Positions 36,906 to 55,770 of a stretch of 64,000 bases of DNA are shown here, piece by piece. The stretch spans positions 96,001 through 160,000 of the forward strand of contig CAVOXA010000014.1 in NCBI GenBank assembly GCA_963700285.1, read 5' to 3'. The position numbers and the translations under genes are program-made. The stretch comes from an uncultured Chloroflexia bacterium (GTDB taxonomy: Bacteria > Chloroflexota > Anaerolineae > JAAYZQ01). How positions within the stretch are numbered: position 1 is the stretch's first letter; each line of letters starts with the position of its first letter. The notes beneath the pieces are model-generated. The model had not been told where the DNA came from. It made no database searches and saw only the letters and a list, made by a program, of their open reading frames with translations.

Positions 36906-36951
36906 GCGCCTGTGACTGCAAGGGAAGCAGTTACCCCTAGCTAACCGATAG

Positions 36952-36992
36952 AAAGTGGTCTACGGCGCCCGCCAGGGCCCGTAGACCACTTT
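36952..36992 (+). terminator. Stem-loop between SBP and permease genes
   Basis: AAAGTGGTCTACGG ... CCGTAGACCACTTT, perfect 14-bp stem followed by GTTCTT. Confidence 0.7.
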
Positions 36993-37013
36993 GTTCTTCA
37001 GAATCGAGGCAGC

Positions 37014-39381: not shown

Positions 39382-40170
39382 ATGGCCAAGTGGTTCACAA
39401 ACCTCCAACGCAGACGGATCTGCATCCTTATCGCACTGCTGCTGGGCGCTGTGTTTGTGGCGGCGCTTCCAGGATTCAGGCTTGCGCCTCACGACCTGGG
39501 TTCACCCCGCTCCCTGGCCGCGGATGCCGAGCCCACACCCAGTCCTAACATGGGCATGGGCATGGGCATGATGTCCCCCCACGAACGCCTTTCCCGCCCG
39601 CTGATATCCAAGCCCCCGACCCAGATCGAGCTGGGGCACGCCGAGTACTGGATGTCCTGCATGGTCTGCCACGGCGACCGGGGCCAGGGTCTGACGCCAG
39701 AGTGGCGCAGCGTACTGGACCCGGCCGATCAGAACTGCTGGCAATCCCGGTGCCACGCCGCCAACCACCCGCCTGAAGGGTTCCAGATCCCGCGTGAGTC
39801 GCCGCTGGTCATGGGCACCGGGGCGCTAGCCGGCTACCGGACCGCCACGGAATTATACGAGTACCTTCGTGTGGAGATGCCCTGGTCCTTCCCCGGCCTC
39901 TTTAGTGATGAAAAATACTGGGAGCTTGCCGCCTATCTGGCCGAAACCAACAAGATCGATATCCCTCACAAACCCCTGGGTCCGGATAACGGAAAAGATG
40001 TACTCCTGGTATCGGGCCTCGTCCAGGCCGACCACCAGGGGGTAGGAACAGAGAGGGTTCTAGCTGGCGTCGTGCTCGTGCTGCTGCTGAGCACCCTGAT
40101 TCTGCAGAGATGGACCCGGCGCCCTGAGGTGAAGCAACAACATAGCAGTGAGGTGGATGGCGATAGCTGA
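39382..40170 (+). CDS. Membrane-anchored c-type cytochrome
   Basis: CMVCH plus CWQSRCH, distal MP, N- and C-terminal hydrophobic helices. Confidence 0.85.
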   Translation: MAKWFTNLQRRRICILIALLLGAVFVAALPGFRLAPHDLGSPRSLAADAEPTPSPNMGMGMGMMSPHERLSRPLISKPPTQIELGHAEYWMSCMVCHGDRGQGLTPEWRSVLDPADQNCWQSRCHAANHPPEGFQIPRESPLVMGTGALAGYRTATELYEYLRVEMPWSFPGLFSDEKYWELAAYLAETNKIDIPHKPLGPDNGKDVLLVSGLVQADHQGVGTERVLAGVVLVLLLSTLILQRWTRRPEVKQQHSSEVDGDS

Positions 40171-40918
40171 GCACGGTCGAGGAACAGGAACCGGGCAGGT
40201 GACGGGGCAAAGAATACGTACCACCTGCAGGCTCGGCGCCTTTGTCATCCTGCCGCTGGTCCTCTGGCTGCCGGTGAGCGTCTCCTTGCCCGGCTTGTTG
40301 GCGCCAACTCCGCTCCACGCCGCTCCCCCGCAGCCTCCCACGTCGAACTCAGACACGATGCCGGGCATGGGTCGCTCGACTGAGCAGAGCGGCGACCGCC
40401 TGGCCAAGCCGGTCCTGCCCGAATCGCCGACCCAGGTCGACGTGGGCCACAGTCTCTACTACTTCCACTGCATGCCCTGCCACGGCGACAGGGGCCAAGG
40501 TCTGACCGATGAATTCCGCGAGGTATGGGTTGAGGACCATCAGAACTGCTGGGGCCGTGGCTGCCACACAGGCAAGTCAGAACAAGCCGCCTTTTACATA
40601 CCAAAATCGGTTCCGCCGGTGAGCGGCGTACCGCAGGCCCTTGGGGCTTTTCAATCGCCGGAGGAGCTGTTCGCTTTTGTGCAGGGTACCCAGCCTCCCC
40701 AGCGCCCCGGGGCACTCTCTGAGAGCGAGTACTGGGCGCTGACCGCATTCCTGCTGCACGAGAATGGTCGCCTGCCCACTGGTGGCCGGGTTGGCCCAGA
40801 GGTCCGTGGCGACGCAATCGTCGCCGCTACGTTTGGGCTGGTCCTGATCCTCGTGACCATGGCCTGGACAGGCAGGCGAAGACAGGGCATGGTCGCTCAC
40901 CAGCCGGCCGCCAGATAA
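40157..40918 (+). CDS. Membrane-anchored c-type cytochrome (paralog of upstream gene)
   Basis: CMPCHGDRGQGLT and CWGRGCH; start uncertain (40148/40157). Confidence 0.82.
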   Translation: MAIAEHGRGTGTGQVTGQRIRTTCRLGAFVILPLVLWLPVSVSLPGLLAPTPLHAAPPQPPTSNSDTMPGMGRSTEQSGDRLAKPVLPESPTQVDVGHSLYYFHCMPCHGDRGQGLTDEFREVWVEDHQNCWGRGCHTGKSEQAAFYIPKSVPPVSGVPQALGAFQSPEELFAFVQGTQPPQRPGALSESEYWALTAFLLHENGRLPTGGRVGPEVRGDAIVAATFGLVLILVTMAWTGRRRQGMVAHQPAAR

Positions 40919-40946
40919 CGTAGCCAGACAAGGATAGACCTGAAGA

Positions 40947-41453
40947 ATGGACCGTCAAGTTCAGACACCGCAGAACCACACCGACACCGGCCTTGACACA
41001 GACCAGGTAGACCGCCGCAGATTCCTGACCTGGCTAACCCGGGGCTCGCTGGCCGCGGCGGGCGCCCTCGCCATCGGCCAGGTCGTCCGCTTTCTCTCCT
41101 TTGAACCGCCCAATCCTATCTCGAGCATCGTTGCCCTTGGCCTTCCGGGCGACTATCCGCGGGGCACGCTGGTCTATGTTCCTGAAGCACAGGCCTACGT
41201 CGGCCACGATGCGCCGGGCTTTTACGTCGTCGACGCCGTCTGCACCCACCTGGGCTGTCTCGTGGAGCAAGGAGAGGCGGGCGAGTTCGTCTGCCCCTGC
41301 CACGACAGTCGCTTTGACGCCCAGGGAAAGGCCGAAAACGGGCCGGCCACCAAACCTTTGCGCTTCCTTTACATCTGGCTGGACCAGGACGAGGGCCAGT
41401 TGATGGTTGACCGGGCCAATCCGGTGGATCCCGCGGCGCGTCTGGCCATCTGA
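40947..41453 (+). CDS. Rieske 2Fe-2S subunit of a Rieske/cytochrome b complex
   Basis: DRRRFL Tat-like signal, CTHLGC and CPCHDSRF. Confidence 0.92.
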   Translation: MDRQVQTPQNHTDTGLDTDQVDRRRFLTWLTRGSLAAAGALAIGQVVRFLSFEPPNPISSIVALGLPGDYPRGTLVYVPEAQAYVGHDAPGFYVVDAVCTHLGCLVEQGEAGEFVCPCHDSRFDAQGKAENGPATKPLRFLYIWLDQDEGQLMVDRANPVDPAARLAI

Positions 41454-41480
41454 GATCCCACACGAATCAGGAAGACATCC

Positions 41481-42497
41481 ATGTCCCAGCGCCGTCCCAA
41501 TTTCTACTACCACTTGCATCCCCCGACGATCCCCGCCCGGGAGGCTCGCGCTGTTTACACCTTCGGGTTGGGCGGCATCTCGCTGCTGCTGTTTCTCGTA
41601 CTGGGCATCACCGGCGTGATCGAGATGTTCATCTATGTGCCTGCTCCCGAACTGGCCCACGAATCGATCCGGCAGATCACCTATCGGGCACCCTACGGCT
41701 GGCTGCTGCGCAACCTGCATTTCTGGGCCGGCCAACTGATGGTGGGTACCGTCGTCCTGCACATGGCTCGCGTCGTACTCAGTGGGGGCTACAAGGCAGG
41801 GCGCAGGGCCAACTGGCTCATCGGCGTGGCGCTGTTGTTCCTGACGCTGGTCCTCAACTTTACCGGCTTTGTCCTGCGCTGGGATCAGGACACCTCCTGG
41901 GCGCTCATGGTCGGTACCAACCTAGTGGCGGCCATCCCCGGCCTCGGCCCGGCACTGTACCGCTTTGTAGTTGGCGGAACCACCATCGGCGCCGCGGCCC
42001 TGATCCGCTTCTACACCTGGCACATCCTGGGTCTGGCCCTGCCGGCCCTGCTGCTCACGACGTGGCACCTCTTCCGGGTCCGTCGCGACGGAGGCATCTC
42101 CAGCCGGCAGCGAGCGCCCCGCGTGGGCCGGGAGCGGTTGGTCCGTACCGAGATAACCGCGGCCCTGCTGACCCTGGCCGCCCTGGTCGGGCTCAGCCTG
42201 CTGCTGGACGCGCCCCTGGCTCCCCCCGCCGATCCCACCGCCCTGGTCGCCGAGCCGAAGGCGCCCTGGTTCTTTCTGTGGATCCAGGAACTGCTGCGCA
42301 TCGCCTCGCCCTTCCTGGCCGGCGTGCTGGTGCCGTTGGTTGTTCTGCTGGTGCTGGGTATCTTGCCCTACAGCCTGGACCGCAGCGACCGGGGCATCGC
42401 CCAGTGGTTCAATCGCCCAGGGCGCGCGGCCCAGATCGTCTTTCTGTTCATCCTCGTCGGAGCCGTGCTATTGACCCTGCGCGGTGTACTGCGCTAG
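41481..42497 (+). CDS. Cytochrome b (b6-like N-part fused to subunit IV-like C-part)
   Basis: GWLLRNLHFW..LHMARV, FYTWH..WH heme ligands, APWF at the PEWY position. Confidence 0.9.
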   Translation: MSQRRPNFYYHLHPPTIPAREARAVYTFGLGGISLLLFLVLGITGVIEMFIYVPAPELAHESIRQITYRAPYGWLLRNLHFWAGQLMVGTVVLHMARVVLSGGYKAGRRANWLIGVALLFLTLVLNFTGFVLRWDQDTSWALMVGTNLVAAIPGLGPALYRFVVGGTTIGAAALIRFYTWHILGLALPALLLTTWHLFRVRRDGGISSRQRAPRVGRERLVRTEITAALLTLAALVGLSLLLDAPLAPPADPTALVAEPKAPWFFLWIQELLRIASPFLAGVLVPLVVLLVLGILPYSLDRSDRGIAQWFNRPGRAAQIVFLFILVGAVLLTLRGVLR

Positions 42498-42636: not shown

Positions 42637-43884
42637 TCAGTCGCCAGCTCCCGTCCTGATCACCAGCAGCGCCATGTCGTCAAACTGTGCTGCCCCTGCT
42701 TGGAACTGGCCGACGCGCTCAAAAACCAGGTCACACGCTCCTTGGGCATCCATTGCGCTGGCAGCAAGCATGGTATCCTGGAAACACTTCACCCCAAAGA
42801 ACTCACCAGAGGGCGAGATGGCATCCGTGATGCCGTCGGTGTAGAGGATGAGCAAGTCGCCAGAACCCAGACACACAGCGACTTCCTCAAGTACCACCTC
42901 TTCGACGACGCCCAACGCCATGCCCTCAGCATCCAGGACCTTGCACTCGCCCAGGTCAGCCTGCAAGAGCAGAGGACGATCGTGACCGGCCCTGACGTAT
43001 TGAAGGAGGCCCTGCCCCACATCGAGGACTCCGTAAAAGACGGTGACAAACATGCCAACCTGGCTCATCTCCAGCAGCAGGCAGTTGACATTGAGCAGCA
43101 CGGACCGGGGCGAGGGGTTGCGTTGGGCTTCGGCCCGGATCAAACTCCGGGTGAGGGCCATGAACAGCGCCGCGGCCATGCCCTTGTCCGACACGTCGGC
43201 CATCACCAGACCCACACGCTGGTCGCCCAGGGGGAAAACGTCATAAAAGTCACCGCCTACCTGCCTCGCGGGCCGGTAGCGGGCCGCACATTCCAAGCCC
43301 GGCAGGCGCGGGAATGCGCGGGGCAGGAAGCTGTGCTGGATGCCGCGGGCAAGCTCCAGCTCCCGCTCCAGGCGCTCCTTTTCCACCAGTTGGGCCTGAG
43401 CCTCCTCCAGTTCGCGAAAGGCCCGGGCCAGCTCCTCGTTCTTGCGCTGCAGATCGGCGATCATCTGCTGGTCTGACTCCCGCAGCCGGGCGCTGAGTAC
43501 CTGCATCGTACGGTACATCAACTGGGGCTGTTCCGACAGCAGGGAGTTCATGCCCGCTTCGGAAAGCTCCAGCAGCGTCGTGGGCTCCAGGGCGCGGATC
43601 GTGGCCGAGCGTGGCCGGCCGTCGACGAGGCCCATCTCGCCAAAGATCTGCCCTGGACCGCGTCTGCTCAGGACCATCTCTTCAGCGCCCTGCCCTTTGA
43701 CCACTTCGACCTGCCCTTCCACGATTATGTACACTTCACGTCCGGCGGTTCCCTCCCGCACGATCGTTTGCCCCGGCGCAAAGCTCCGCTCCTGCGCTGT
43801 CTCGGCCACCCATTCTAGCAGCTCCGGTCCAGCACCTTTCAGAAAGGGTACCTGGATCAAGACCTCCCTATCGAGCCTGGTCAT
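42637..43884 (-). CDS. cNMP-binding domain + coiled coil + PP2C/SpoIIE (RsbU-like) phosphatase
   Basis: FGEMGLVDGRPRSAT; VGGDFYD, ADVSDKG, YTDGITDA, DDMAL. Confidence 0.93.
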   Translation of the reverse strand: MTRLDREVLIQVPFLKGAGPELLEWVAETAQERSFAPGQTIVREGTAGREVYIIVEGQVEVVKGQGAEEMVLSRRGPGQIFGEMGLVDGRPRSATIRALEPTTLLELSEAGMNSLLSEQPQLMYRTMQVLSARLRESDQQMIADLQRKNEELARAFRELEEAQAQLVEKERLERELELARGIQHSFLPRAFPRLPGLECAARYRPARQVGGDFYDVFPLGDQRVGLVMADVSDKGMAAALFMALTRSLIRAEAQRNPSPRSVLLNVNCLLLEMSQVGMFVTVFYGVLDVGQGLLQYVRAGHDRPLLLQADLGECKVLDAEGMALGVVEEVVLEEVAVCLGSGDLLILYTDGITDAISPSGEFFGVKCFQDTMLAASAMDAQGACDLVFERVGQFQAGAAQFDDMALLVIRTGAGD

Positions 43885-43959
43885 GCGTCCTCACTCAAGC
43901 TACGGCCAAAGAACACCTTGCCCTCCATCCCCTGCCGGTGCACGGCCTGACCTGGTGCC

Positions 43960-44095
43960 CGGATGCCAGGCCGGTGTTGATGCCGACCCGCACACCAAAG
44001 CCATGGAGGCCGCGGTTTCGCTCCCGATGTGTCGTGTACTCTTGCGCACCCTTATGGCTACCACGTCACAAGCGTCCAGGGCCAAATCGGCCCAA
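43960..44095 (-). pseudogene. Relic fragment of a class III adenylate/guanylate cyclase
   Basis: Start-less minus frame reads GAQEYTTHRERNRGLHGFGVRVGINTGL (VRVGINTGL at 43967-43993), the R-x-G-I-[NH]-T-G motif of class III cyclases. Confidence 0.55.
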
Positions 44096-44286
44096 TCGCA
44101 GCTTCAACCTGTATTGGGCAGCAACGTCAATTGAAAGTATACCACAGTTGGGGGGAATCTACCACTGCCGAGAGACCATGCCAAACTGGACCAGTCTGGC
44201 ACGCAGGTGGCATTCTCGTTCACACGGTATCCTAGCCGCGAGGGCTTGTTGCTTTCAGGGTAACAGAGCTGATCTGGTCTTTCGAG

Positions 44287-47200
44287 TCAAGCCACGCGCT
44301 GCAGGTCCAGCAACCGCCTGCTTGTGTCGCGTTCAAGCTGCCGGCCCACGTACAGGTGCTCGCTGACCAGGCGGTCGAAATCATCTTTGGTTAAGGCCAA
44401 TACGCGTGTCGGCGCCAGGGCCGTGACGGTGGCCGTACGAGGAACTTGAAGCAAGAGCGCGATCTCGCCCACGTACTCGCCTGGCCCGCGCTCAGCAGCG
44501 ACGCGCAGCTCGCCATCCTGGCCCACGGATACCTGTACCCGCCCCGACTCGATGACATAGAAGGTCTCCCCCATCTCACCCTGGCGCATGAGGGCTGCGC
44601 CAGGCTCGTAGGTCTGGGCTTGCAGTTGGGCAGCGACGAGCCGGAGCTGTTGGGCGCCCATCTCGGCAAAGAGCGGTACGCGCCTCAGCAGTTCCACCTG
44701 GGTTATGGAGCGATCCACCTTGTCCCGCAGGGCAAAGCGAGCTTTGACCAACTGTTCAAAGTCGCGGCGGCTCAAGGACAGCAACTCTGTGGGTATTGTC
44801 GTCCGGCATGTGGCGTTGCGCGGGGCATCGTGCAGCAGCGCCAGCTCGCCAAAATAGCCCCCTCGGTCCAGTTGGTTCACCACCTCGGAGACTCCTCGTT
44901 CGTCGCGCTGTGTCACCTCGACGTGCCCGTGCCGGACGATGAAGAACCGGTCCCCGCGCTCACCCTGGCGGATGACGGCCCGGCCAGGCCCGTGGTGCTC
45001 TACCCGCAGGCGGGAGCAGACCAGGTCAACCTCGGCACCGTCCATGGTAGCGAAAAGGGGCATGCGCTGCAGCAGGCGCCTGTAATCCTGCTGTACAGTC
45101 TGAAAGTCAGCACTCAGGCTCTCGGCCCGCTTTACCTCGCGGAACAGGTATTGGACTCCGATCTCCCGCTCCTCCCAGGGCAACCCATCGTAGGCCCGCT
45201 GCAGAGACCGCACCGCCAGCTTTTCCCCTACCTCCTCGGCGGTCAGGTCCAGGAGCAGCCCCAGCACGGCAGCATAGATCTCGCCCTGCTCGATGAGGGG
45301 GCGCTCCGAGACTGTGGCCTCCTCGACCTGCCCTGCGACGATGCTCACCGCCCAGCCAGCGGCCAGGGCATAGTTGTTGAAACGCTCCACCAGGTTGCGG
45401 GCAGCCCGGTCGCCGGCAATCTGGCGGAACTGCTCCACGAGGTCGGACACAGTCCAGCCCAGGGCCCTTTGCAGACGGCGCCCGTCGCTCAGGTCAACCA
45501 CGGCCCTGGGTTGGTCGCTCAGGAGGGCGATGGACCTGAAGGCCAGGTGGTGGAGCAAAAGCCCTCCAGCCAGGAGCAGATAGGCAAGCAGCGGAACGCG
45601 GCCGGTGAGCGCCGAGACCGCCATTCCTCCCAGGCTGAAGATCAGCAGCGTCCAGGCCGGACCAAAACTCGTCCGCCAGAAAGAGACCAGGGTAGGCGCC
45701 ATCAGGGCCAGTGTCAGCAGCGGGAGCAGCCAGCCGCTGACGGTCAACAGCGCCCCGGCAACCGTAGGGCTGGCCTGCTGCTGTCGCGCGACCAGCCACA
45801 ACACCAAGCCGTAGCTTCCCGCCAGGCCAAGGACCAGCAGGGCCTTTCCCATCCGGCTCATCTCTTTGAGCTTCGCGCCGGAAAACAGGAGGAGGCCGGC
45901 CACGGCCAGAGCGCCATAGGCCAGGTAGGCCAGACCGATGGCGACAGGTGCGACGAGAATGGGCAGCACAGGCTGCCCTTCTTTCACCGCAATCGCCCCG
46001 GTTCCCACAAGTCCGATCAGCACAAGACTCGGCACAAGAGCCAGGGAAAAGAGCCCTATCAGCCAGAACACAGGCGACAGGCGGGATCCTGCATAGTCGG
46101 AAGCAATGCGCCAGGCGAGAAAGGCGGCAATGCTCAGAGCAGCCACGCCGATAACCGGGGTCAGCGCCCGGTAGGATAAGGCAGCAGGTACCAGGCTGAG
46201 CGCGACTGCGGCAGCCAGGAGCAAGGCAGCCACATTCCAGGGGTTGGCAAAGAGGCCCTTCCGGGCCGCCCAGAGCACAACCTTGCGGACCATGCTTAGC
46301 AGGGCCAGGCCGATGGATAGGACCAGGAGCAGGCTGAGGGCCGCCAACCCCAGGGCAAGCAAGATCCTGCCCACGCCGCCGCCCCGAGTCCACAGGTCGC
46401 GCAGCGCCCCAGCCAGCCGCCGCTGCCAAAAGTAGGCGCCCATCAAGATGGCGTAGGCGGTCCAGGCCGCCGACAACAGGCCAAAGACAGTAAAGATCTT
46501 TTCCTCGCGGGAGAAGGAGGGCAGGACGCCTTTAGGGCTGGCCGAGACTTCGGAAGTCTTGGAGACTTCCGAAGTCTGCTCTTGCCGGACAGCCTTGACC
46601 TTTTCCCACAAACCACCCCGGATAAAGGCCAGCGATTTGCGCCGCAGCATGGGGATGTCGAGCCAGTCCATGAGCAAGTAATAGCCATCCAACTCTAGCA
46701 GGGGATTGAGGTTGAAAAAGACCGTCAGGTAAGACAGAAAGGCGAACTGGAAGAGCAGGGGGTTCAGCGCGAAGGCAGGCCAGAGAAAGAGTACGATACT
46801 GGCCAGGCCTCCCAGGATCAGACCCGAGTAAGGGCCCGCCCAGGTGACGGCCAGGCGAGCCCGTTTGCCCTCCAGCCAGATGTCGGTGGTATCCACGAAA
46901 AAGGCGGGCATGCCAAAATAGATCATAAACCCGCCGCGCCGCACTTCGCGCCCATAGTGCTTGACCGTCAGGGCGTGGGCCATCTCGTGGATGAGGACGG
47001 CGAACAGGTTGGCCACGATCAGGCCCATCATGCCCAGCGCGATAGAACCGGCGATGGTCACCACGCCGTACTGTCCCCCGCGCAGGGCCTGGACAAAGGC
47101 ATAAAAGCCCAGTACCGTTACGAGCAGGTAGAGGATCAGCACCGGTCGGGCGAAGAGCAATCCACCGACCCGCCGATAGACACCACTCAACGCGCGATCC

Positions 47201-47682
47201 AGGCCACCGATGGTGAATTGCCTTTGCAGAAAAGACTGCCAGACCCGGGCCAGACGGTATTGGGGACGGCGTCTCAGCAGGCGGCCCCGCACCCGCTGGT
47301 AGACGTTGACCGGCCGCTCGCTGAGCAGCAGGCCAGCTTTGAGCCCCTCTACCAGGGCGGCCACACGAGCAAAGGCAAAGGAACCATATTCAAGAAAGTA
47401 GGCAACGACCAGGTCCTTGACCGTGCGGCGGCCATCCATCCGCTCCCACAAGAAGTGGTCCCGGTCGCTCAGGCGGTAGTAGGTCTTGGTGGCTGGATTC
47501 TTCAAGACATAGTACACGCCATCGCGCCCTGTCAGGCGGCTGGCTATCACGCCCGGCGCCGCCTGGGGTCGGTATTGGGCCATCTCCAGCTTTTCGTACA
47601 GCCAGGCCTTCAGGCCCAGCCAGCCCTGATCGGGCTGGCTGGTCTCTTGCCGCAGCGTGTCCCAGAGGGAGGTTGCTTCCAT
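44287..47682 (-). CDS. PqqD/RRE-like domain + M50 (site-2) zinc metalloprotease + multi-TM region + two cNMP-binding domains
   Basis: YYVLKNPATKTYYRL..FLWERMDGRRTVKDL; IHEMAH, AGP, NLNPLLELDGYY; FGELALLHDAPRNAT and VGEIALLLQVPRTAT. Confidence 0.88.
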   Translation of the reverse strand: MEATSLWDTLRQETSQPDQGWLGLKAWLYEKLEMAQYRPQAAPGVIASRLTGRDGVYYVLKNPATKTYYRLSDRDHFLWERMDGRRTVKDLVVAYFLEYGSFAFARVAALVEGLKAGLLLSERPVNVYQRVRGRLLRRRPQYRLARVWQSFLQRQFTIGGLDRALSGVYRRVGGLLFARPVLILYLLVTVLGFYAFVQALRGGQYGVVTIAGSIALGMMGLIVANLFAVLIHEMAHALTVKHYGREVRRGGFMIYFGMPAFFVDTTDIWLEGKRARLAVTWAGPYSGLILGGLASIVLFLWPAFALNPLLFQFAFLSYLTVFFNLNPLLELDGYYLLMDWLDIPMLRRKSLAFIRGGLWEKVKAVRQEQTSEVSKTSEVSASPKGVLPSFSREEKIFTVFGLLSAAWTAYAILMGAYFWQRRLAGALRDLWTRGGGVGRILLALGLAALSLLLVLSIGLALLSMVRKVVLWAARKGLFANPWNVAALLLAAAVALSLVPAALSYRALTPVIGVAALSIAAFLAWRIASDYAGSRLSPVFWLIGLFSLALVPSLVLIGLVGTGAIAVKEGQPVLPILVAPVAIGLAYLAYGALAVAGLLLFSGAKLKEMSRMGKALLVLGLAGSYGLVLWLVARQQQASPTVAGALLTVSGWLLPLLTLALMAPTLVSFWRTSFGPAWTLLIFSLGGMAVSALTGRVPLLAYLLLAGGLLLHHLAFRSIALLSDQPRAVVDLSDGRRLQRALGWTVSDLVEQFRQIAGDRAARNLVERFNNYALAAGWAVSIVAGQVEEATVSERPLIEQGEIYAAVLGLLLDLTAEEVGEKLAVRSLQRAYDGLPWEEREIGVQYLFREVKRAESLSADFQTVQQDYRRLLQRMPLFATMDGAEVDLVCSRLRVEHHGPGRAVIRQGERGDRFFIVRHGHVEVTQRDERGVSEVVNQLDRGGYFGELALLHDAPRNATCRTTIPTELLSLSRRDFEQLVKARFALRDKVDRSITQVELLRRVPLFAEMGAQQLRLVAAQLQAQTYEPGAALMRQGEMGETFYVIESGRVQVSVGQDGELRVAAERGPGEYVGEIALLLQVPRTATVTALAPTRVLALTKDDFDRLVSEHLYVGRQLERDTSRRLLDLQRVA
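46545..46577. repeat. In-frame palindromic repeat (TSEVSKTSEV) inside the M50 gene
   Basis: AGACTTCGGAAGTCT-TGG-AGACTTCCGAAGTCT. Confidence 0.8.
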
Positions 47683-47698
47683 AAGATGTCCAAGACAT

Positions 47699-47727
47699 CG
47701 AGCCGTCCGCACAGTGCGGACGGCTCG
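47699..47727. repeat. Perfect inverted repeat between precursor gene 1 and the protease gene
   Basis: CGAGCCGTCCGCAC-A-GTGCGGACGGCTCG. Confidence 0.8.
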
Positions 47728-47794
47728 GTGCGGTTGTCAGACCCCCGATAGGCACTGACAAACCTGGGATTGAGGGGAAGAGATAATGTTAAAT

Positions 47795-48067
47795 CTAGAC
47801 GATCTTGAACTCCGGTCCCACCATAGGACCGGCGTCGACGCTGCCAAAGGCCACCATTCCGGCAAAGTCCATTTTGGAGATGCGCTCGTCCAGAGTACCG
47901 GCCAGCGTCTCCATGGTCTCTGCGTCAAGACTCTTCAGTGCGGCCACCTCCTCGTCCGTCAGCTCAAAGCCCGCCAGCGCCTCCTCGGGGCTGGCAAACA
48001 GAGCCTCGCGAAAGTCTTTCTCCAGTACTGCCTTGCCGATGACAGTTTCCACAGCTTCCTTGGACAT
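47795..48067 (-). CDS. NHLP-clan (Os1348/Franean1_4349-like) RiPP-type precursor peptide 1, 90 aa
   Basis: MSKEAVETVIGKAVLEKDFREALFASPEEALAGFELTDEE..LDERISK + 25-aa tail; AGGAG RBS. Confidence 0.8.
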   Translation of the reverse strand: MSKEAVETVIGKAVLEKDFREALFASPEEALAGFELTDEEVAALKSLDAETMETLAGTLDERISKMDFAGMVAFGSVDAGPMVGPEFKIV

Positions 48068-48128
48068 GGTACACGCTCTCCTTTTCTTGAGTTTGGTCTC
48101 TCGGCCTGATGGGCTCAAATCTGACCTC

Positions 48129-48194
48129 ATTCTACAGCACAACCGGGCTCCTGTCTATGACCGCCTTCACAGGCTGACTGTGACCTGCGTCACA
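48129..48194 (-). promoter_or_regulatory. CRP-dependent (class II) promoter of precursor 1 with tandem CRP boxes
   Basis: TGTGA-CCTGCG-TCACA (48179-48194), TATGA-CCGCCT-TCACA (48156-48171), -10 TAGAAT (48134-48129); proximal box centred at about -41.5. Confidence 0.8.
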
Positions 48195-48201
48195 GTATCG
48201 C

Positions 48202-48822
48202 TCAGCGGCGACAACCAATGTCCGCCAGCAGAACTTCTAGGGCCGCGATGTTCCGCTGCTTTCCCGTCCCGCGAAGGGCCCGCGCTGCCCCGGTAAAGTA
48301 GGTGTGTTCTCGAAGGAACTGGAGTTGGCGGCGATACCAGGCTTCCTTACCCAGCCGCACACCGTGCGCCGCCCACTCGGCACGCAGCGCCTCACTCTGA
48401 ACCAGGCCATCCTCCCGCCCCAGGCTATCGAGGTCAGCATCGGCCAGGATCTCTTCTAGGGACGTAAGGGGTCGCTGCGGCAGCCTGGTGGCCAGGATCA
48501 GCCCCTGGACCACGGACACCTGTTTTGGCGTGAAACCAAAGCAGGGCAGGACCAGGACCACGATCTCGGCGCCGGCCCGTTCGTGGTCGTGGTACTGGAA
48601 CAAGAATCCAATGTCATGATAGGCCGCGGCGATTTCGATGAGCCGGGTCTCATCCTCATCCATGCTGCTGGCCGCCGCCAATCGCAGGGCTGCGGGCAGC
48701 ACGTCATCGTTTGTATGGGAAAAGTTGTGGTAGGTCAGTTCCGGAGCCAGTTCGCTTTGCAGGCGGTCCAGCGCATAGCGCTTGGCAGCCTCAAAATCGG
48801 ACTGGCGGTGAGGGTAGCGCAT
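48202..48822 (-). CDS. HD-domain metal-dependent phosphohydrolase (possible cNMP phosphodiesterase)
   Basis: YHNFSHT, AAAYHDIGF, HE, ILADADL; ATG 48822. Confidence 0.85.
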   Translation of the reverse strand: MRYPHRQSDFEAAKRYALDRLQSELAPELTYHNFSHTNDDVLPAALRLAAASSMDEDETRLIEIAAAYHDIGFLFQYHDHERAGAEIVVLVLPCFGFTPKQVSVVQGLILATRLPQRPLTSLEEILADADLDSLGREDGLVQSEALRAEWAAHGVRLGKEAWYRRQLQFLREHTYFTGAARALRGTGKQRNIAALEVLLADIGCRR

Positions 48823-49157
48823 GGCTTCCCGGCCAGCTCCTGCCCACGGCTCTCCGCTCAGAATCTGCCAGCCGGTCACGGCCTCCGGATCCGTTCCCTG
48901 GATAGCCATTGCGCAGGAATGCAGATCATTGGACGCTCACGCGGCAGCCCTCGCCCTTCGCTGCGCATCGACCGCAGTCCACGCATGGGATCCATGTGCG
49001 CTGGAGGGCGCACTTGGAGGCCCGCCCGAGCTTGGCGCAGGAAAGGCACGGGTCTGTGACCCGGCCTGAGGGAATTCGGACGGGCGAGCCGGTGTCATTA
49101 GCCGGCACAGGTGCCGGGGGAGGGAATGCGGCAGCACATGAGTCCGATGCAGGTCTT

Positions 49158-49448
49158 CTATGTGACCTCAATCAGGGACGCCCTGCCCATGTCACCCGAC
49201 TCGCCGGCCCACAGCCCGTTCCAGCCGTAGCTGAGCACGCCCTGGTAGTCACTCTTGGAAATGCGCTCGTCCAGGATGCCGGCAAACGACGCAATGGCCT
49301 CGGCATCGATGGTCTTCAGAGCGGCTGCTTCCGCCTCGGCCAGGTCGTAGCCGGCCAGTGCCCGGTCGGGATCTATGAAGAGGAGGTCGCGGAACTCGCG
49401 GTCCAGCACTGCCCTGCCGATAACGGCCTCTACGGCTTGCTTTGACAT
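49158..49448 (-). CDS. NHLP-clan RiPP-type precursor peptide 2, 96 aa
   Basis: 39/65 leader residues identical to precursor 1 (hand count), LDERISK + 31-aa tail; AAAGGGG RBS. Confidence 0.8.
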   Translation of the reverse strand: MSKQAVEAVIGRAVLDREFRDLLFIDPDRALAGYDLAEAEAAALKTIDAEAIASFAGILDERISKSDYQGVLSYGWNGLWAGESGDMGRASLIEVT

Positions 49449-49532
49449 AGGATTCCCCTTTCTTTCAGGCCGGTCCCGCCCCAGATCGCGGGCGTACCTG
49501 CTACAGCCCCATCGAGATCGCTAACTGGTACG

Positions 49533-49598
49533 AGTATAACGCACTGCCGGACTGTGGGCCATGAACTGCGTCACATCGTTGCTGTTAACTGGGTCACA
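49533..49598 (-). promoter_or_regulatory. CRP-dependent (class II) promoter of precursor 2 with tandem CRP boxes
   Basis: CATGA-ACTGCG-TCACA (49560-49575), TGTTA-ACTGGG-TCACA (49583-49598), -10 TATACT (49538-49533); geometry identical to precursor 1. Confidence 0.78.
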
Positions 49599-49615
49599 CT
49601 CCAGGCTAGCGCCGG

Positions 49616-49658
49616 ACAAAACGAAAGGGATGGAAACAGCAGAACCGTTTCCATCCCT
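49616..49658 (-). terminator. Intrinsic terminator downstream of the Crp gene
   Basis: AGGGATGGAAAC/GTTTCCATCCCT 12-bp stem followed on the minus strand by TTCGTTTTGT. Confidence 0.7.
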
Positions 49659-49776
49659 CACAGGCACAGCACCGTCTATTTGCTTATGACAAGATCATCT
49701 CGCGCTTCAGAGAGTGGCCGGGCTCTCCCCCCTGAGCGGCAACAGGGTTGGCGGCTTCGCAGGCGTCTCGGTCCCA

Positions 49777-50478
49777 TCAATACAGGATCCTTCTCTCCAA
49801 TCCCTGCCGGTCCAGAATCGTGACCCGATGCCCCTCGATCTCGATCAGCCCCTGGTCCCGGAAGGCGCCCAGTACCTTGTTCACCCTCTCCCGGCTGGCT
49901 GCTACCCAGGTGGCCAGCTCGGTCTGGGTCAGGCGGAGATCGATGGCGACAGTCTCATTGCCTTGCTCCCCTTCCTGTCCCTCCCGCCCGTAGCGCTCGG
50001 CCAGCTCCAGGAGCTTGGCCGCTACCCTGCCATAGACGTCGAGAAAGGACAGGCTCTCAACATAGGCAGTGGTATAGCGGACTCGGGCGCTCAGAACCTC
50101 CAGGATGCTTCTGGCCATACCGGGGCAGGATTCCAGGTGCCGCAAAAAGTCGTCTCGGCTCAGGGTCAGCGTCACCGTCTTTTCCATGGCCACCGCCCCG
50201 GCCGAACGCGGCAGGCCGTCGAGCAGTGCCAGCTCACCAAATACCTCACCGGGGCCGTAAACGTTGACCGAAATCTCCTGACCAGACTCGCTGATGATAA
50301 AGATGCGGACCTTGCCCGATTCGATGACGTACAGACTGTGGCCCCGGCCGCCCTTGTGAAAGATGATCATCCCCTTGCCAAAGGTGCGTTTCCCCAGGCT
50401 GCCGGCCAGGGTCTCCAGATTTTGGTCAGAGACTCTGGCAAAGAACGAAACGTTCCGAAGCTGATCCACCTGGGACAT
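49777..50478 (-). CDS. Crp/Fnr family transcriptional regulator, cAMP-binding type
   Basis: FGELALLDGLPRSA binding cassette; LTQTELA..SRERVNK HTH; no Fnr Cys cluster. Confidence 0.95.
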   Translation of the reverse strand: MSQVDQLRNVSFFARVSDQNLETLAGSLGKRTFGKGMIIFHKGGRGHSLYVIESGKVRIFIISESGQEISVNVYGPGEVFGELALLDGLPRSAGAVAMEKTVTLTLSRDDFLRHLESCPGMARSILEVLSARVRYTTAYVESLSFLDVYGRVAAKLLELAERYGREGQEGEQGNETVAIDLRLTQTELATWVAASRERVNKVLGAFRDQGLIEIEGHRVTILDRQGLERRILY

Positions 50479-50874
50479 TCACACCTCCCGCGCGCGCTGC
50501 AAGCGATTGGAATGCTCCTATTCTAACACACAACAGCAGAAAACAAAACCACTACTCTCATTTCCCGTGTCGCCGTGGGTCGAAGGCATCCCGCGGTCAA
50601 TCGCCCACAAAGTCTAGGGACGTCGTCAACAGCGCACAGTGGTCGCACTCAAGCTCCCGGCCTAGGGCCCAGGTCAAGAACACGACAAGCCCTGCCCGAT
50701 ACCCCACTGAATGTTTTCGAGCAGCGTCGCGCTTGAGAGAAGGCGCAGGATCGCCCCGGCGATGGCGACCACCAGGTCCAGGGCTGTGATGGCCTGATTG
50801 GTCGGATAGATGGGGTCGATAGGGGTGCGTCCCGGGGCGTTACGTCACTCGGCTTCGTCGTGTCGCACCTCTTC

Positions 50875-51481
50875 GATTGAGATTCACCTGCTGGTGTATC
50901 CACTCCGGCACCGGATAGCGGTTGAGGTGATGCTTGAGCAGGGTTAAGGGCACGATCAGTGGCACCAGCCCCTGCCGGTAGTCCTCGATGAGGCCCAGGA
51001 GTTCCTGCTTATCTTCGCTGGAGAGGTCATTCTTGAGGTAACCCATCAGGTGCTGGAGCACGTTCACATGCTTGCCCCGCGTGCCCAACACGGCGAGGCC
51101 CTCCATCAATTGAGCGCCGTACTCTGCGGTCAATTCGTCCCAGTCCCGCTTGCCCGCATCGGCGACCAGGCGGCCCATCTCAGTGTAGTGTTTGGGACTA
51201 TGGGCCATCAGCGTCATCTTGTGCGCCGTATGGAACTTGACCAGGCCACCTGGCGTCGGCTCCTCGTCTAGCATTCGAGTCCAGCGATAGTAGGCGAACA
51301 CCCGCTCGACAAAGTTCTCGCGCAGCGGCAGGTCGTTGAGCCGTCCCTCCTCCTCCAATGGCAGCAAGGGGAACCGGTTCATCACCTCTCGGGGGAACAT
51401 GCCCGTGCCGTTGCGCTCGGCCATGCCATGTGGATTGTACACTTTCACGCGAAATAAGCCTGAACTTGGCGAATCCTTCTT
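50875..51481 (-). pseudogene. 3' fragment of the DUF523/DUF1722 (YbgA-like) gene, copy D
   Basis: KKDSPSSGLFRVKVY..KHVNVLQHLMGY..WIHQQVNL; lacks N-terminus and last residues. Confidence 0.85.
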
Positions 51482-51602
51482 ATAAGACTGGACACAAACG
51501 ACAAATCCAGCTGGCCAATGAACTGACTCTGACAACTAGAATCAAGCTCCGGAGGCTCTGCGACTGAGACCTGTTACTACGCGTGGTCGGCTCCAGAGAT
51601 AG

Positions 51603-52676
51603 CTATGCCCCAGACTCAAAAACCTCTGCCGCGCGGCGCATCTTGGCGATGATATCAACATCAAATGGGCAACGCTCGAGGCACACCTCGCATTCGATGC
51701 AGTCCGATCCCGTAGCCGGGAGCGACGCATACCACTCCCGATTCGCCTGCTGGTGAAGCGGCGTAAGTCCGTAGTACTCGACGTAGTTCAGATAGTAGAT
51801 GACGCTAGGAATGGGGATGTCCTGTGGGCAGGGGAGGCAATGTTTGCAGCGCACGCACTGCCCGCGGAGCCAGTACTTGAGATCGTCGTGCAAAGGGGTG
51901 GCCCGTTTCTCCTCCGCGGATGCCGTCAGATAGCTGAGGGCCTGCCGCGTCTGATCGGCATTCCGGGGGCCGGGCACGGCAGCGGCGACTCCCTGTGACA
52001 GGACATAGTGCAAGCACTGGGCCGGCGTGATGCCGGTCGGGGTGCCATCTCTCTGCAACAGCACGCCACCGTAGTAGGGCTTCATGGCGACGACGCCAAC
52101 CCCGTACTCTGCGCAGGTCTCCAGAAGTGCGGCTCGCTCCGGGTCCCCGTGGTGTTGATACAGATTGACCGGGAACATGAGGACATCGATGAGGCCCGAT
52201 TCGATGGCCATGCGGGCCACAGCCGGATTGTGGTTGCTGAGACCGATAAAACCGATCCGCCCGTCGCGTCGGAAGCGATCCAGTCGTTCGATTCCCTGCG
52301 CCGCCCAGTTCTGCCACAACGATTCGGTATCGACCATGGTGAGCATTGCGATCTCAGCGTAGCCGTTTCCCAGGAGGCTGAGTGCCTGATCGAAGCAGCG
52401 CTGGCAGCGGTCAACCGGTTCGTGGTAGATGAACCCCCAGTGTAGGCAGAGCACCAGACTCTCGCGAAATCGGCGAATGGCTGGGCCGATAGCCTCCCAA
52501 TAACCGGCATGGCTTTCCAAGGGGTCGTTGTAGACCAGATCGATGTAGTTCACGCCCGCTGACAGGGCTAGGCCGAGCACTGCATCCATGTTCTCAGAGC
52601 TCTCGATCAGGTGCTCAGTGCCTAGCCCGATCACACCGACCTCGAGTCCTGTCCTACCCAGAGTTCTGGTTTCCAT
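51603..52676 (-). CDS. Aldo/keto reductase with C-terminal 4Fe-4S dicluster domain
   Basis: RTLGRTGLEV..IGLG, IGLSNH, AMKP; CVRCKHCLPC and CIECEVCLERCP. Confidence 0.9.
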   Translation of the reverse strand: METRTLGRTGLEVGVIGLGTEHLIESSENMDAVLGLALSAGVNYIDLVYNDPLESHAGYWEAIGPAIRRFRESLVLCLHWGFIYHEPVDRCQRCFDQALSLLGNGYAEIAMLTMVDTESLWQNWAAQGIERLDRFRRDGRIGFIGLSNHNPAVARMAIESGLIDVLMFPVNLYQHHGDPERAALLETCAEYGVGVVAMKPYYGGVLLQRDGTPTGITPAQCLHYVLSQGVAAAVPGPRNADQTRQALSYLTASAEEKRATPLHDDLKYWLRGQCVRCKHCLPCPQDIPIPSVIYYLNYVEYYGLTPLHQQANREWYASLPATGSDCIECEVCLERCPFDVDIIAKMRRAAEVFESGA

Positions 52677-52939
52677 TCTTATCGCAGATTGCCCCCTATT
52701 CTGCTCGTCCAGCTTTCCTGTCCAATGGTAGACCGTCTAGCAAGTACCGAACAGAACACCTCTGCACAAGCAAACTGACCAGATGACCATGAAGAATCTG
52801 CTTGTAGAAGCACCCGTAGCTGGAAAATTCCAGAGATCCTTCAATGCGTCTCCTGGTGGGACTCTATGACCAATTGACATTGTATCATAGTCTCGCCCCT
52901 TGAGCAAAACCACGTGTGCGGGGACTGGAATGCCACAAC

Positions 52940-53512
52940 TCAGGTGATGCTTCAGCAGCGTCAACGGCACGATCAGCGGCCCAGCCCCTGACGGTAGTCC
53001 TTGATGAGACCCAGGAGCTCCAGCCTACCTTCGGTAGGCCTTGTCATCACTGGAGAGATGGTTCTTTAGTAACCCATCAGGTGCTGGAGCACGTTCACAT
53101 GCTTTCCTCGCGTGCCCAGTACAGCCAGGCCCTCCATCAGCATAGCCCCATACTCGGCTGTCAGTTCGTCCGAGTCCCGCTTGCCCGCGTCAGCGACGAG
53201 GCGGCCCATCTCGGTGTAATGCTTGGGACTATGGGCCATGAGCGTGAGCTTGTGGGCGGTGTGGAACTTGACCAAGCCGCCTGGGGTAGGTTCCTCGTCT
53301 AGCATTCGGGTCCACCGATAGTAGGCAAAGATCCGCTCGATAAAGTTCTCACGCAGGGGCATATCGTTGAGCCGGCCTTCCTCCTCCAAGGGCAGCAGCG
53401 GGAAACGGTTCATGAGCTCGCGGGGGAATATGCCTGTCCCATTTCTCTGCGCCATTCCGTGCTCATTATACACTTTCACACGGAATAAGCCCGAACTTGG
53501 CGAATCCTTCTT
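52940..53512 (-). pseudogene. 3' fragment of the DUF523/DUF1722 gene, copy C (frameshifted, with a palindrome insertion)
   Basis: Same start point as copy D; premature stop at 53066; PLTLLKHHL remnant. Confidence 0.85.
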
Positions 53513-53627
53513 ATAAGACTGGACACAAACGACAAAAAGTCTTCATGCTAACGACCTGCATCCAAGTAATGGGAGAGGCCGAAATAGACTGAACACGTCT
53601 TATAGGTTGAGCAAAACGCAGATGAAA

Positions 53628-53972
53628 CTACATCTGTAGCCCAGATCGCAACAGGTCGATGATTGCCTGGACGATGCTCTGGAGGGTCGCTTGCGAGAGG
53701 TTACCGGCTTCGGATACCATGAGGCTGCTGCTGGCCGTGAACAGCTTGCCAGGACGTGCATAGCTTGTCACCCGAAGGGAGCCTGTATCGAAATCTGCGT
53801 CCGTAAGCTCAACGGCACGCGGGTCTGCGTACGGATTGCTGGTGATCTGGCACAGTATCCAGTCATCCCTGCCAGAGTCAGCCAACACAAGCGCAGGTCG
53901 CAGCTTGGCCTCCGACAGATCCGAGAACGGAAATGGTACAAGCACTATCGAGCCGACTGCAGGTGTGACCAT
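53628..53972 (-). CDS. PemK/MazF family toxin
   Basis: GSIVLVPFPFSDLSEAKLRPALVL, CQITS. Confidence 0.9.
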   Translation of the reverse strand: MVTPAVGSIVLVPFPFSDLSEAKLRPALVLADSGRDDWILCQITSNPYADPRAVELTDADFDTGSLRVTSYARPGKLFTASSSLMVSEAGNLSQATLQSIVQAIIDLLRSGLQM

Positions 53973-54166
53973 GCGGCATCTTCCTCTGACCTGTTCCAGT
54001 CCTTGGCCAGTGCTGCCTCGCTGAGCAAGGCCGTTTCAGACACGCCGCTTAGAGGCGCCTCCTCCAAGATTGTCACAAGTGCACGCCGCACAGCCGGCAA
54101 TCGGACTGATTCAAGCAAGCTCACTTTGCCTTGCTCGTCAATCACAGCTTCGATTGTTTTGACCAT
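53945..54166 (-). CDS. Putative antitoxin upstream of the PemK/MazF toxin
   Basis: 73-aa acidic protein ending LSEAALAKDWNRSEEDAAWSHL, overlapping the toxin start. Confidence 0.75.
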   Translation of the reverse strand: MVKTIEAVIDEQGKVSLLESVRLPAVRRALVTILEEAPLSGVSETALLSEAALAKDWNRSEEDAAWSHLQSAR

Positions 54167-54201
54167 GCCTACCCCTTTCATCGACACTGAACCCTAACCT
54201 G

Positions 54202-54230
54202 ATTATACAACGAATGGCATGGCCGGTCAA
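54202..54230 (-). promoter_or_regulatory. Sigma70 promoter of the TA operon
   Basis: Minus strand TTGACC-17 nt-TATAAT. Confidence 0.7.
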
Positions 54231-54295
54231 CCAACCGAAACAACTTCGCACGCAGGTCAAGGCTCATGTAGACAGTGATGGGTTGATCCATTGGT

Positions 54296-54424
54296 CTACA
54301 CGTGATTGCGCAGCATGAGCTCCTTGGGGTACGGATGCAAGTACGCCTGCTGGTGTACCCAATCGGGAACCTGATAGCGGTCTAGATGATGCTTGAGCAG
54401 CGTCAGCGGCACGATCAGCGGCAG
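54296..54424 (-). pseudogene. Extreme 3' fragment of the DUF1722 gene, copy B
   Basis: LPLIVPLTLLKHHLDRYQVPDWVHQQAYLHPYPKELMLRNHV* (not in ORF track). Confidence 0.85.
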
Positions 54425-54443
54425 GAGGTCCCGCTGACAAGCC

Positions 54444-54725
54444 TCACCCATCTGGGCTCGGAACTCCAGGATACACAGATTGTGGAAGGCTTCTAGCTTC
54501 TGCTGCTGCCTTCTGCAACGCAGCGGCTAGTTGCTCTGCCTGTTCGATGGTCAGCAGGAAGCTCGTCTCATCCGCCTCAAAGAGCCGCATATCCCTCGGC
54601 CCTGACTCATGGATGCGAAACCGGATTTCATCATCCCAACCTTGCTCCCGGTCCGCAGGGTCAAAGTACACTTCGACAGAAATGTTCTCGCCTGCTTGAA
54701 CGATCATGTAGACATCTCGAAACAC
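54444..54725 (-). CDS. Small acidic hypothetical protein
   Basis: 93-aa ORF directly after the DUF1722 stop; no recognisable motif. Confidence 0.55.
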   Translation of the reverse strand: MFRDVYMIVQAGENISVEVYFDPADREQGWDDEIRFRIHESGPRDMRLFEADETSFLLTIEQAEQLAAALQKAAAEARSLPQSVYPGVPSPDG

Positions 54726-54737
54726 CGCACTACCAGT

Positions 54738-55720
54738 TTAAACATGATTCCTAAGCATCAGCTCCTTTGGGTACGGATGGAGGTAGACCTGCTGGTGCAC
54801 CCAGTCAGGCACCGGATGCCGGTTCAGATGATGCTTGAGCAGCGTCAGCGGCACTATCAGTGGCACCATCCCCTGCCGGTAGTCCTCGATGAGGCCCAGG
54901 AGCTCCTTCTTGTCTTCACTCGAGAGGTCCTTCTTGAGATAGCCCATCAGGTGCTGGAGCACGTTGACGTGCTTGCCCCGGGTGCCCATCACACCGAGGC
55001 CCTCCATGAGCATGGCCCCATACTCGGCTGTCAATTCGTCCCAGTTCCGCTTGCCCGCGTCGGCGACGAGGCGGCCCATCTCGGTGTAATGCTTCGGACT
55101 GTGGGCCATCAGCGTCAGCTTGTGCGCGGTGTGGAATTTGACCAGACCACCGGGCGTTGGCTCCTCGTCTAGCATTCGCGTCCAGCGATAGTAGGCAAAG
55201 ACTCGCTCGATAAAGTTCTCGCGCAGCGGCATGTCGTTGAGGCGGCCCTCCTCCTCCAGCGGCAAGAGCGGGAAGCGGTTCATGACCTCGCGGGGAAACA
55301 TGCCCGTGCCATTGTGCTGGGCCATGCCGTGTTCATTATACACTTTTACACGGAACAGACCCGACGAAGGAGAATCCTTTTTGAACACAAAGCCGTGAAG
55401 CTCGGCGGCAGCCAGCTCTTCCACACGATTCTCGTGCCCAGGCGATCATGGCTTCCGTATGGTCAGTGCCGGACTTGGGCGCTATCAGCCGCGGATGCTC
55501 GCTGTCACCCACCAAGCGCAGGCTCTCCCGTGGGATGGGCAGCCCCATCTCTACCTCCGGGCAGACAGGCACCCACTCAACGAATAAGCCCAGCGTGCCG
55601 GTCAGATACCGGTCCAGTTTGTGCCCGCCGTCAAAGCGTACCTTTTCTCCGAGCAGGCAGGTGCTGATTCCAAGACGAATCGTCGGTCCCTCGATGGGCT
55701 TCTGCTCGACGTTTGCCATC
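54738..55720 (-). CDS. DUF523/DUF1722 (YbbK-YbgA-like) protein, full-length copy A, one frameshift near 55430
   Basis: GISTCLLGEKVRFDGGHK, VCPEVEMGLPIPRE, KKDSPSSG, PYPKELMLRNHV. Confidence 0.85.
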
Positions 55721-55770
55721 TGTTCCTCCTTCCCTGTCACGGTGCCGGCCCCATCGGGGGGCAGCTTCGT

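Follow-up and report, generated by a model that had tools for sequence, protein, structure and literature searches.

This study concerns a cassette of six genes in a 64,000-nucleotide stretch of DNA from an uncultured Chloroflexia bacterium (GenBank assembly GCA_963700285.1, contig CAVOXA010000014.1, positions 96,001 to 160,000), called the window below. The genes, which all lie on the minus strand in the same orientation, encode a Crp regulator, a small precursor peptide (precursor 2), a hydrolase of the HD type, a second precursor (precursor 1), a membrane protease and a PP2C phosphatase, with cyclic nucleotide monophosphate (cNMP)-binding domains on both the protease and the phosphatase (Table 1). 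The original prediction, made from the sequence by a reader who ran no database searches, described six co-oriented genes with four such domains. Gene calls and profile matches bear out this count, with one domain in Crp, two in the protease and one in the phosphatase. Throughout, L numbers denote mapped loci and G numbers genomes, G000 being the genome that holds the window locus.

Table 1. Features of the cassette, in window positions. aa, amino acids; RRE, recognition element of peptides that are made by the ribosome and modified after translation (RiPPs).
Feature	Position	Strand	Basis
Crp/Fnr-family regulator, 233 aa, cNMP + HTH_Crp_2 domains	49777..50478	-	Pfam-type profile matches
Terminator-like hairpin 3' of crp	49625..49659	-	16 pairs; consensus match only
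Promoter of precursor 2	49533..49598	-	CRP boxes 49583-49598 and 49560-49575; -10 TATACT 49538-49533
Precursor 2, Os1348/PF14407 leader of 65 aa (end LDERISK) + 31-aa tail	49158..49448	-	
HD hydrolase, 206 aa, predicted class I-like cNMP phosphodiesterase	48202..48822	-	PF01966 and fold matches
Promoter of precursor 1	48129..48194	-	CRP boxes 48179-48194 and 48156-48171; -10 TAGAAT 48134-48129
Precursor 1, Os1348/PF14407 leader of 65 aa (end LDERISK) + 25-aa hypervariable tail	47795..48067	-	
12-bp hairpin in the precursor 1/protease gap	47700..47726	none	Sequence, fold; one RNA-library contig end at 47714
RRE - M50 site-2 protease - family-specific membrane domain + linker - two cNMP-binding domains, 1131 aa	44287..47682	-	
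Relic of deleted class III adenylate cyclase-STAND gene	43881..44213	-	Comparison with L116
cNMP-binding - coiled coil - SpoIIE/PP2C phosphatase, 415 aa	42637..43884	-	

Both precursors belong to the Os1348/PF14407 (Frankia_peptide) family of the NHLP clan, as expected of the two paralogous NHLP-like leader-plus-core peptides of the original prediction. They pass the cut-offs of PF14407 (66.2 for precursor 1 and 56.9 for precursor 2, against 48) and NF038399 (84.4 and 74.6, against 40), and the nearest solved structure is that of Os1348 (6LK7, E-value 4.5e-8). Compared with L116, a locus of the same genus, the leader of precursor 1 is identical at 55 of 65 positions and its tail at 3 of 25; the tail of precursor 2 is identical at 26 of 31. 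The end of the leader, L[DE]xRxxK, tracks the protease: it is present in 74 of the 97 precursor-like proteins that come from protease-positive loci or genomes, a figure favoured by the hidden Markov model (HMM) having been seeded on protease-linked precursors, and in one of 21 from 20 protease-negative genomes, the single genome concerned being 64% complete. At four loci (L041:7321-8445, L042:489-1286, L043:8913-9866 and L128:7108-8274) the precursor tails reach 200-323 aa and are built of tandem peptide repeats.

The model of the protease (predicted local distance difference test score, pLDDT, 76) opens with three strands (46-52, 55-62, 67-72) and three helices (73-80, 88-99, 104-116), the order of a predicted RRE, and continues with a membrane part of about 14-15 long helices, a linker and the two cNMP domains. 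HExxH and NxxPxxxxDG motifs in membrane segments (HEMAH and NLNPLLELDG) mark a putative M50 site-2 protease; H232, E233, H236, N324, N326, P327 and D332, among them the zinc ligands and the catalytic Glu, are invariant across 36 homologous sequences, and HExxH is kept in 95 of 96 protease domains. The proposed domain names fared unevenly in profile searches: the precursor models scored over their cut-offs, while the PqqD profile PF05402 (22.6 bits, E-value 1.4e-4) fell slightly below its cut-off of 23.4 and PF02163 (16.1) under its 27.2, though the motifs and the fold are present. The phosphate-binding arginines of both cNMP domains (R955 and R1082) are intact, and the best fold matches of this tandem sensor are the regulatory domains of PKA and PKG; a fold search with the whole protease matched cNMP domains only. 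Residues ~478-865, the membrane domain and linker, had no Pfam or Atlas match. They have 81 relatives among 1.84 billion representatives, and since 72 of these also carry M50 or cNMP parts and the other nine are mostly short fragments, no use of this region as a sensor in other proteins was found. The start codon is probably ATG 47682 and not GTG 47712, because homologues begin there. Complex predictions of protease residues 1-375 with precursor 1 gave 0.25 and 0.08 against a mark of 0.32 and, as controls were not folded, carry no weight either way.

The original prediction placed CRP boxes at both precursor promoters, and these were found as pairs of boxes 23 bp apart, with a perfect box at 48179, one mismatch at 48156 and at 49583, and two mismatches at 49560. 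There are 7 perfect sites in 7.05 Mb, and a box with at most one mismatch lies ahead of 16 of 22 Crp-adjacent precursors compared with 17 of 1230 other genes. We inspected 21 promoters, namely those of first precursors behind Crp together with window precursor 1, its L116 counterpart and L114; four second-in-tandem precursors, which have no boxes, were left out. The layout box - 7 nucleotides - box - 21 nucleotides - TAnnnT recurs in 20 of the 21. From this spacing the sites would be centred at -41.5 and -64.5 of a predicted start site. Class II CRP promoters have their site centred at -41.5, and the precursor promoters would thus hold putative Crp sites in class II geometry. Box enrichment and promoter geometry together argue for the suggested control of the precursors by Crp.

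In G000 the composite promoter occurs three times, each time before a Crp-linked precursor. Across 301 genomes it gave 33 sites in 17 genomes and its reversed pattern none, a scan that is circular for the nine cassette genomes from which the pattern was drawn. In G236 and G259 it also precedes an operon of STAS and cyclase genes, an arrangement that would result in positive feedback, and other targets include short proteins with signal-peptide-like N-termini. Two arrangements with this promoter were noted: runs of genes for 120-135-aa proteins with signal-peptide-like N-termini behind the double-box promoter and followed by a Crp gene (L177 in G259, L179 in G236), and a locus (L183:2163-6705 in G065) at which a Crp gene and the double-box promoter accompany a WD40/PD40 protein and a fusion of a PrsW intramembrane protease with a cNMP domain, the fusion being a second membrane protease linked to cNMP.

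Precursor 1 is covered, at 99% identity or more, by RNA-library contigs of three studies, which end at 48106, 48106 and 48111, a little beyond the start predicted at about 48122; one contig end falls within the hairpin, at 47714. From contigs only and with no DNA run beside them, this is no more than a weak hint. The contigs span neither crp nor HD nor most of the protease, a gap in cover that proves nothing, and their depth cannot rank genes. Elsewhere in the window (34800-37000) such contigs differ by single-base indels from a frameshifted ABC substrate-binding gene, which suggests assembly errors there.

To assess conservation, we scored 8000 candidates in a search with the protease, which gave 651 matches; among the matches listed, 117 of 120 carry cNMP domains. 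The best 80 of 581 relatives were taken for mapping, and 94 loci (102 minus 8 duplicates) were mapped. The window clade comprises 20 of them, 18 placed by a quick tree (support 91) from which L056 and L111, added by identity, were left out. A precursor is present at 18 of the 20 loci, the remaining two having just 4 and 568 nucleotides upstream; Crp lies within 8 kb at 16, and the order Crp-precursor-protease is retained at 16. Other neighbours are more variable: a zinc finger at 12, an M16 peptidase at 8, PP2C within 8 kb at 8, a cyclase at 8 (seven by our own HMM, L037 by Pfam) and HD at 4, all of these being lower bounds because many loci end at contig edges. HD and PP2C are accessory. At the level of whole genomes, PF14407 is found in 26 of 29 protease-positive genomes of the class and in 64 of the other 272, or above the cut-off in 18 of 29 and 11 of 272, counts in which kin are not independent. 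Linkage of precursor and protease, on which the original prediction depended, is thus conserved both in the neighbourhood survey and as genome-level co-occurrence. The protease family occurs in 29 of 301 genomes of the class, in 36 of 301 genomes of the phylum and in 18 of 18 genomes of one family; relatives with named records are Chloroflexota, for the most part Anaerolineae.

The commonest partners at related loci, a cyclase-STAND-TPR gene, the Cys-rich zinc finger and the M16 peptidase, are missing at the window locus. For the cyclase there is a trace, since positions 43967-44053 are 72% identical over 29 aa to the adenylate cyclase of L116. The suspected cyclase relic is therefore real. 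L116 has a cyclase-AAA-TPR-SBP5 gene of ~4 kb, frameshifted in the assembly, between protease and PP2C, where the window locus has lost the stretch, and a second one upstream of crp; in both cyclases SBP5 is the last domain. An intact cyclase-AAA-SBP5 gene lies ~25 kb from the cassette on the same contig and a receiver-cyclase-HD fusion on contig C1 of G000, so that cyclic AMP (cAMP) could be supplied in trans. Further afield, where the cNMP-protease stands alone, the best precursor of the genome adjoins a cyclase-STAND gene in 8 of 10 genomes of the class and in 6 of 6 other genomes of the phylum. All of these cyclase-STAND genes that were scanned with Pfam encode TPRs, and the adjoining precursors have tails of 5-9 residues. 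The text of the Pfam entry reportedly ties PF14407 to cyclases in chloroflexi, after Iyer et al. 2009, and we know of no ligand for the large cyclase-STAND-TPR proteins of Chloroflexota. In G000, L194:2817-15166, L196 and L197 hold several cyclase-AAA-SBP5 fusion genes, part of them frameshifted.

The HD protein scores 24.2 with PF01966 (cut-off 22) and is modelled with a pLDDT of 97. Class I phosphodiesterases occupy 17 of the top 20 rows of its fold search (Z 13-16.6 over 187-198 of 206 residues), compared with 8.9 for HD-GYP, but an uncharacterised HD protein and YpgQ reach equally high scores; Foldseek ranks small HD proteins first. A sequence search against the PDB gave no match, and a profile search was set aside as uninformative for HD, being swamped by fused receiver and cyclase domains. 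Among 46 longer homologues 35 are fused, 22 to a cyclase and 13 to a cNMP domain. YHxxxH, HD, HE, T, D and Q166 are invariant and F169 is found in 28 of 34 sequences, a Q-x-x-F pattern that we take to correspond to the purine-binding pair of class I phosphodiesterases. The HD protein is likely a cNMP phosphodiesterase. The phosphatase reaches 163.8 with PF07228 (cut-off 25), as expected of a putative SpoIIE/RsbU-type enzyme. A STAS gene lies beside it in L044, L056 and L130, and none is present in the window. The two had been cast as off-switch and partner-switching output, respectively; the phosphodiesterase-like features of the HD protein are in line with the first role, and both proteins are accessory in the clade.

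Several neighbouring arrangements deserve mention in their own right. Among neighbours of the protease family the commonest is a 70-aa Cys/His-rich zinc finger, B-box-like and of no named family (L002:5014-5226, L001:15360-15572 and ~55 other loci); it was not found in G263 (90% complete) with the query used. Contig C5 of G000 holds a paralogous cassette of HD, MFS-cNMP, Crp, precursor, M16 peptidase, cNMP-protease and zinc finger, and at L001:7605-8911, in the paralogous cassette, DNA repeats in tandem, 49 and 224 bp long, separate MFS-cNMP from crp. Contig C1 has a RiPP-like cluster (L002:5014-15890), with four PF14407 precursors and four B12 radical SAM genes in interleaved order, an RRE-M50 protease without cNMP domains, the zinc finger and a 349-aa protein that weakly resembles prenyltransferases (E-value 0.23). 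The same prenyltransferase-like gene adjoins PF14407-like genes, mostly Trp-ending, in L156, L157, L160, L164, L225 and L055, pairs reminiscent of ComX/ComQ. A further group of operons (L058:8409-13560, L060, L065, L077, L082, L148) combines RRE-M50, an extracytoplasmic function (ECF) sigma factor, an M16 peptidase and a fusion protein of 145-165 aa with a PF14407 domain in its C-terminal half, possibly a leader-tagged anti-sigma factor; the zinc finger and an FHA gene lie upstream in all of these except L148. In the window itself, genes for probable c-type cytochromes (one with a Pfam match), a Rieske protein and cytochrome b (39382-42497) converge on the cassette in an order identical to that of L116, and a DUF1722-type gene is present in several copies, part of them broken (50840-55740).

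We consider it somewhat likelier than the other readings combined (probability about 0.55) that this conserved cassette works as a feedback circuit in which cAMP governs the production and cleavage of an unmodified signalling peptide. The cAMP would come from a class III cyclase-STAND-TPR protein, at the window locus presumably encoded by the intact gene ~25 kb away in place of the relic. Bound to cAMP, Crp would then switch on both precursor promoters through the sites at -41.5 and -64.5. With the leader docked on the RRE, the HExxH protease would make its cut at L[DE]xRxxK or directly behind it, while cAMP on the tandem sensor domains, which are intact, could tune the protease in either direction. 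Finally, the freed tail or the clipped leader may act on the TPR or peptide-binding sensor of the cyclase and so close the loop, a step proposed because of gene linkage and the weakest of the series. The HD protein could serve as a cAMP phosphodiesterase brake and the cNMP-PP2C, with STAS, as a partner-switching output, both as accessories. The original prediction noted no radical SAM, YcaO, LanM or C39 transporter here, and indeed no tailoring enzyme is present in the window and no radical SAM gene in the 20 clade loci, and no Pfam tailoring family recurs.

The fully closed version of this circuit is more tentative and on balance doubtful: in it an intramembrane protease under cAMP gating cuts the peptide that serves the STAND adenylate cyclase as ligand, the cAMP formed induces the peptide anew by way of Crp, and the cAMP is cleared by a minimal class I phosphodiesterase of bacterial type. 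If the closed loop is true, leader and RRE recognition of the RiPP type would have been re-used as a signalling switch, one that would also drive the release of ECF sigma factors in the sister operons. Novel, too, would be a site-2 protease that is aimed by an RRE and gated by tandem cNMP domains resembling those of PKA. A direct candidate ligand for cyclase-STAND-TPR proteins would be the 70-aa protein, short in its tail, that is encoded beside them, and the 206-aa HD protein a candidate bacterial class I phosphodiesterase. The protease family is, moreover, widespread in Chloroflexota.

A number of observations weigh against the feedback circuit. Its binding, cleavage, gating and feedback steps are all inferred from genes, motifs, linkage and promoter geometry. 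Three of the 20 clade loci (L130, L044 and the frameshifted L056) keep Crp, precursors and cyclase with a protease that has no visible cNMP domains, so that a cNMP signal acting twice, on transcription and on the protease, is not obligatory. Outside the clade, many cNMP-proteases have neither Crp nor a precursor nearby. The top single fold match of the HD protein is an uncharacterised bacterial HD protein (2PQ7, Z 17.4), with YpgQ at Z 15.9. Two distant cNMP-protease cassettes have a tailoring-type enzyme by the precursor, a RimK-type ATP-grasp at L149:8406-12038 and a TP_methylase, presumably of borosin type, at L231:7612-11387, and protease relatives without cNMP domains accompany radical SAM genes in L002, L055, L074 and L076. 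The tails range from 2 to 323 aa with no common sequence, so that a common receptor is not obvious. Lastly, a Pfam scan of 87 flanking proteins from 23 loci, and of six more, revealed no recurring exporter, which leaves nothing to support an exit of the core from the cell.

The same lack of an exporter is compatible with a different role, in which the small protein is an intracellular regulator: its leader fold would bind a partner, either the STAND cyclase or the sigma machinery, and L[DE]xRxxK would be a tag that hands it to the RRE-protease for regulated destruction, with M16 finishing the job and the tail largely irrelevant. Short tails (10 aa or fewer in 34 of 74) and the M16 gene at 8 of 20 clade loci fit this idea, as do the ECF-sigma operons, which fuse the domain behind an 80-aa N-terminal region, leave a 4-aa tail in four of six cases and have RRE-M50 and M16 adjacent. 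We nonetheless regard it as unlikely, although it is the main rival. Tails in the Crp clade are mostly 23-323 aa long, the combination of a constant leader with one conserved and one replaced tail is the pattern of a precursor family, and some cassettes place tailoring enzymes beside the precursor.

Rather less probable, and distinctly unlikely, is an ordinary RiPP pathway in which enzymes acting in trans, such as the four B12 radical SAMs of C1, modify the cores and cAMP merely times the production of an antimicrobial or other metabolite. C1 does provide precursors, radical SAM enzymes and RRE-M50 in G000 itself, and the ATP-grasp and TP_methylase cassettes point in the same direction. Os1348 sits among putative modifying genes, affects antibiotic activity and is under Gac control (PMC7726476). 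Against this stand the lack of radical SAM genes in the clade and of any recurring tailoring family, and the tails themselves, which share no modifiable residue (Cys makes up 0.6% of the first eight positions). In-trans modification by the C1 enzymes is, moreover, made unlikely by the same-genus G263, which keeps the cassette and whose two precursors are the only ones of the genome, and by five cassette genomes whose best matches to the C1 enzyme reach 29-33% identity.

It is very improbable that cAMP controls the release of the tails as unmodified peptides that evolve fast and serve antagonism or kin recognition. Tail 1 is almost wholly different between two species of one genus, tail starts are Gly-rich and hydrophobic, and EpeP, an M50 enzyme, is thought both to cut and to export its peptide, according to a review (PMC10885120); the flank scan, however, revealed no recurring immunity or export gene, and many tails are 3-9 aa long or consist of long low-complexity repeats. 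An anti-phage role of the Pycsar or CBASS kind was likewise rejected, as the matches given by PADLOC are confined to the cNMP-binding stretch of its profiles and none were obtained for HD or precursor 1. Least credible of all is an island of independent cNMP-related genes whose precursor is not a substrate of the protease, for although HD, PP2C, cyclase, zinc finger and M16 vary between loci, the Crp-precursor-protease order holds in 16 of 20, the leader-end motif follows the protease and the genome-level co-occurrence holds even when the genes are unlinked.

Site-2 proteases are, so far as is known, regulated via PDZ or CBS domains and upstream cuts. Eep/RRNPP quorum sensing of Gram-positive bacteria also relies on an M50 protease, which releases a short peptide for detection by a TPR protein, with positive feedback on the peptide gene; that peptide is exported, re-imported and bound by its TPR receptor, whereas in the window system the candidate sensor is a cyclase-STAND-TPR protein acting via cAMP and Crp, and the precursor has a folded cytoplasmic leader. 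The HD protein differs from class I phosphodiesterases in its size (~200 aa versus ~320) and shares 14-20% identity with them. The precursors belong to the Os1348 family (PMC7726476, PMC12353581, PMC8939145). The leader fold is common to the Os1348 family, NHLP, borosin and ComX precursors (PMC12353581); compared with Os1348, the window precursors have no adjoining modifying enzymes and a CRP-type promoter instead of Gac control.

We found no description of this wiring in the mainly open-access literature searched; the supplements of the daptide preprint may list the RRE-protease family. The terms M50, cyclic nucleotide and Chloroflexi are absent from the accessible text of Haft et al. 2010 (PMC2887384), and 'cyclic nucleotide' is absent from the review PMC10885120 as well. 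According to the daptide preprint (10.1101/2023.03.08.531785), the daptide protease MpaP shares with the window protease an N-terminal RRE fused to an intramembrane site-2 protease and has several short leader-core genes adjacent. A daptide pathway was nevertheless rejected, as the window protease scores 146 bits with the MpaP model NF041824 (cut-off 300), the leader is NHLP/LigA-like and not of the ELExMEAP type, and the dehydrogenase, aminotransferase and methyltransferase (MpaB/C/D/M) are absent; precursor 2 ends in Thr, precursor 1 does not. The window protease also extends beyond MpaP with an extra membrane domain, a linker and two cNMP domains. EpeP/YydH and TglG/TmoG resemble it as membrane M50 proteases that act on a small ribosomal peptide, the latter clipping from the C-terminus of a scaffold peptide (PMC10885120). 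The score with the epipeptide model NF058609 is 49.6 bits (cut-off 225), and the cassette holds neither the radical SAM epimerase nor the ABC exporter of an epipeptide pathway, nor the pearlin enzymes. By analogy, then, the locus would work like daptide MpaP, EpeP or TglG while falling outside the families that these define, and it is a real and conserved form of RRE-dependent peptide processing, apparently uncharacterised as yet, in which the processing is wired to cAMP.

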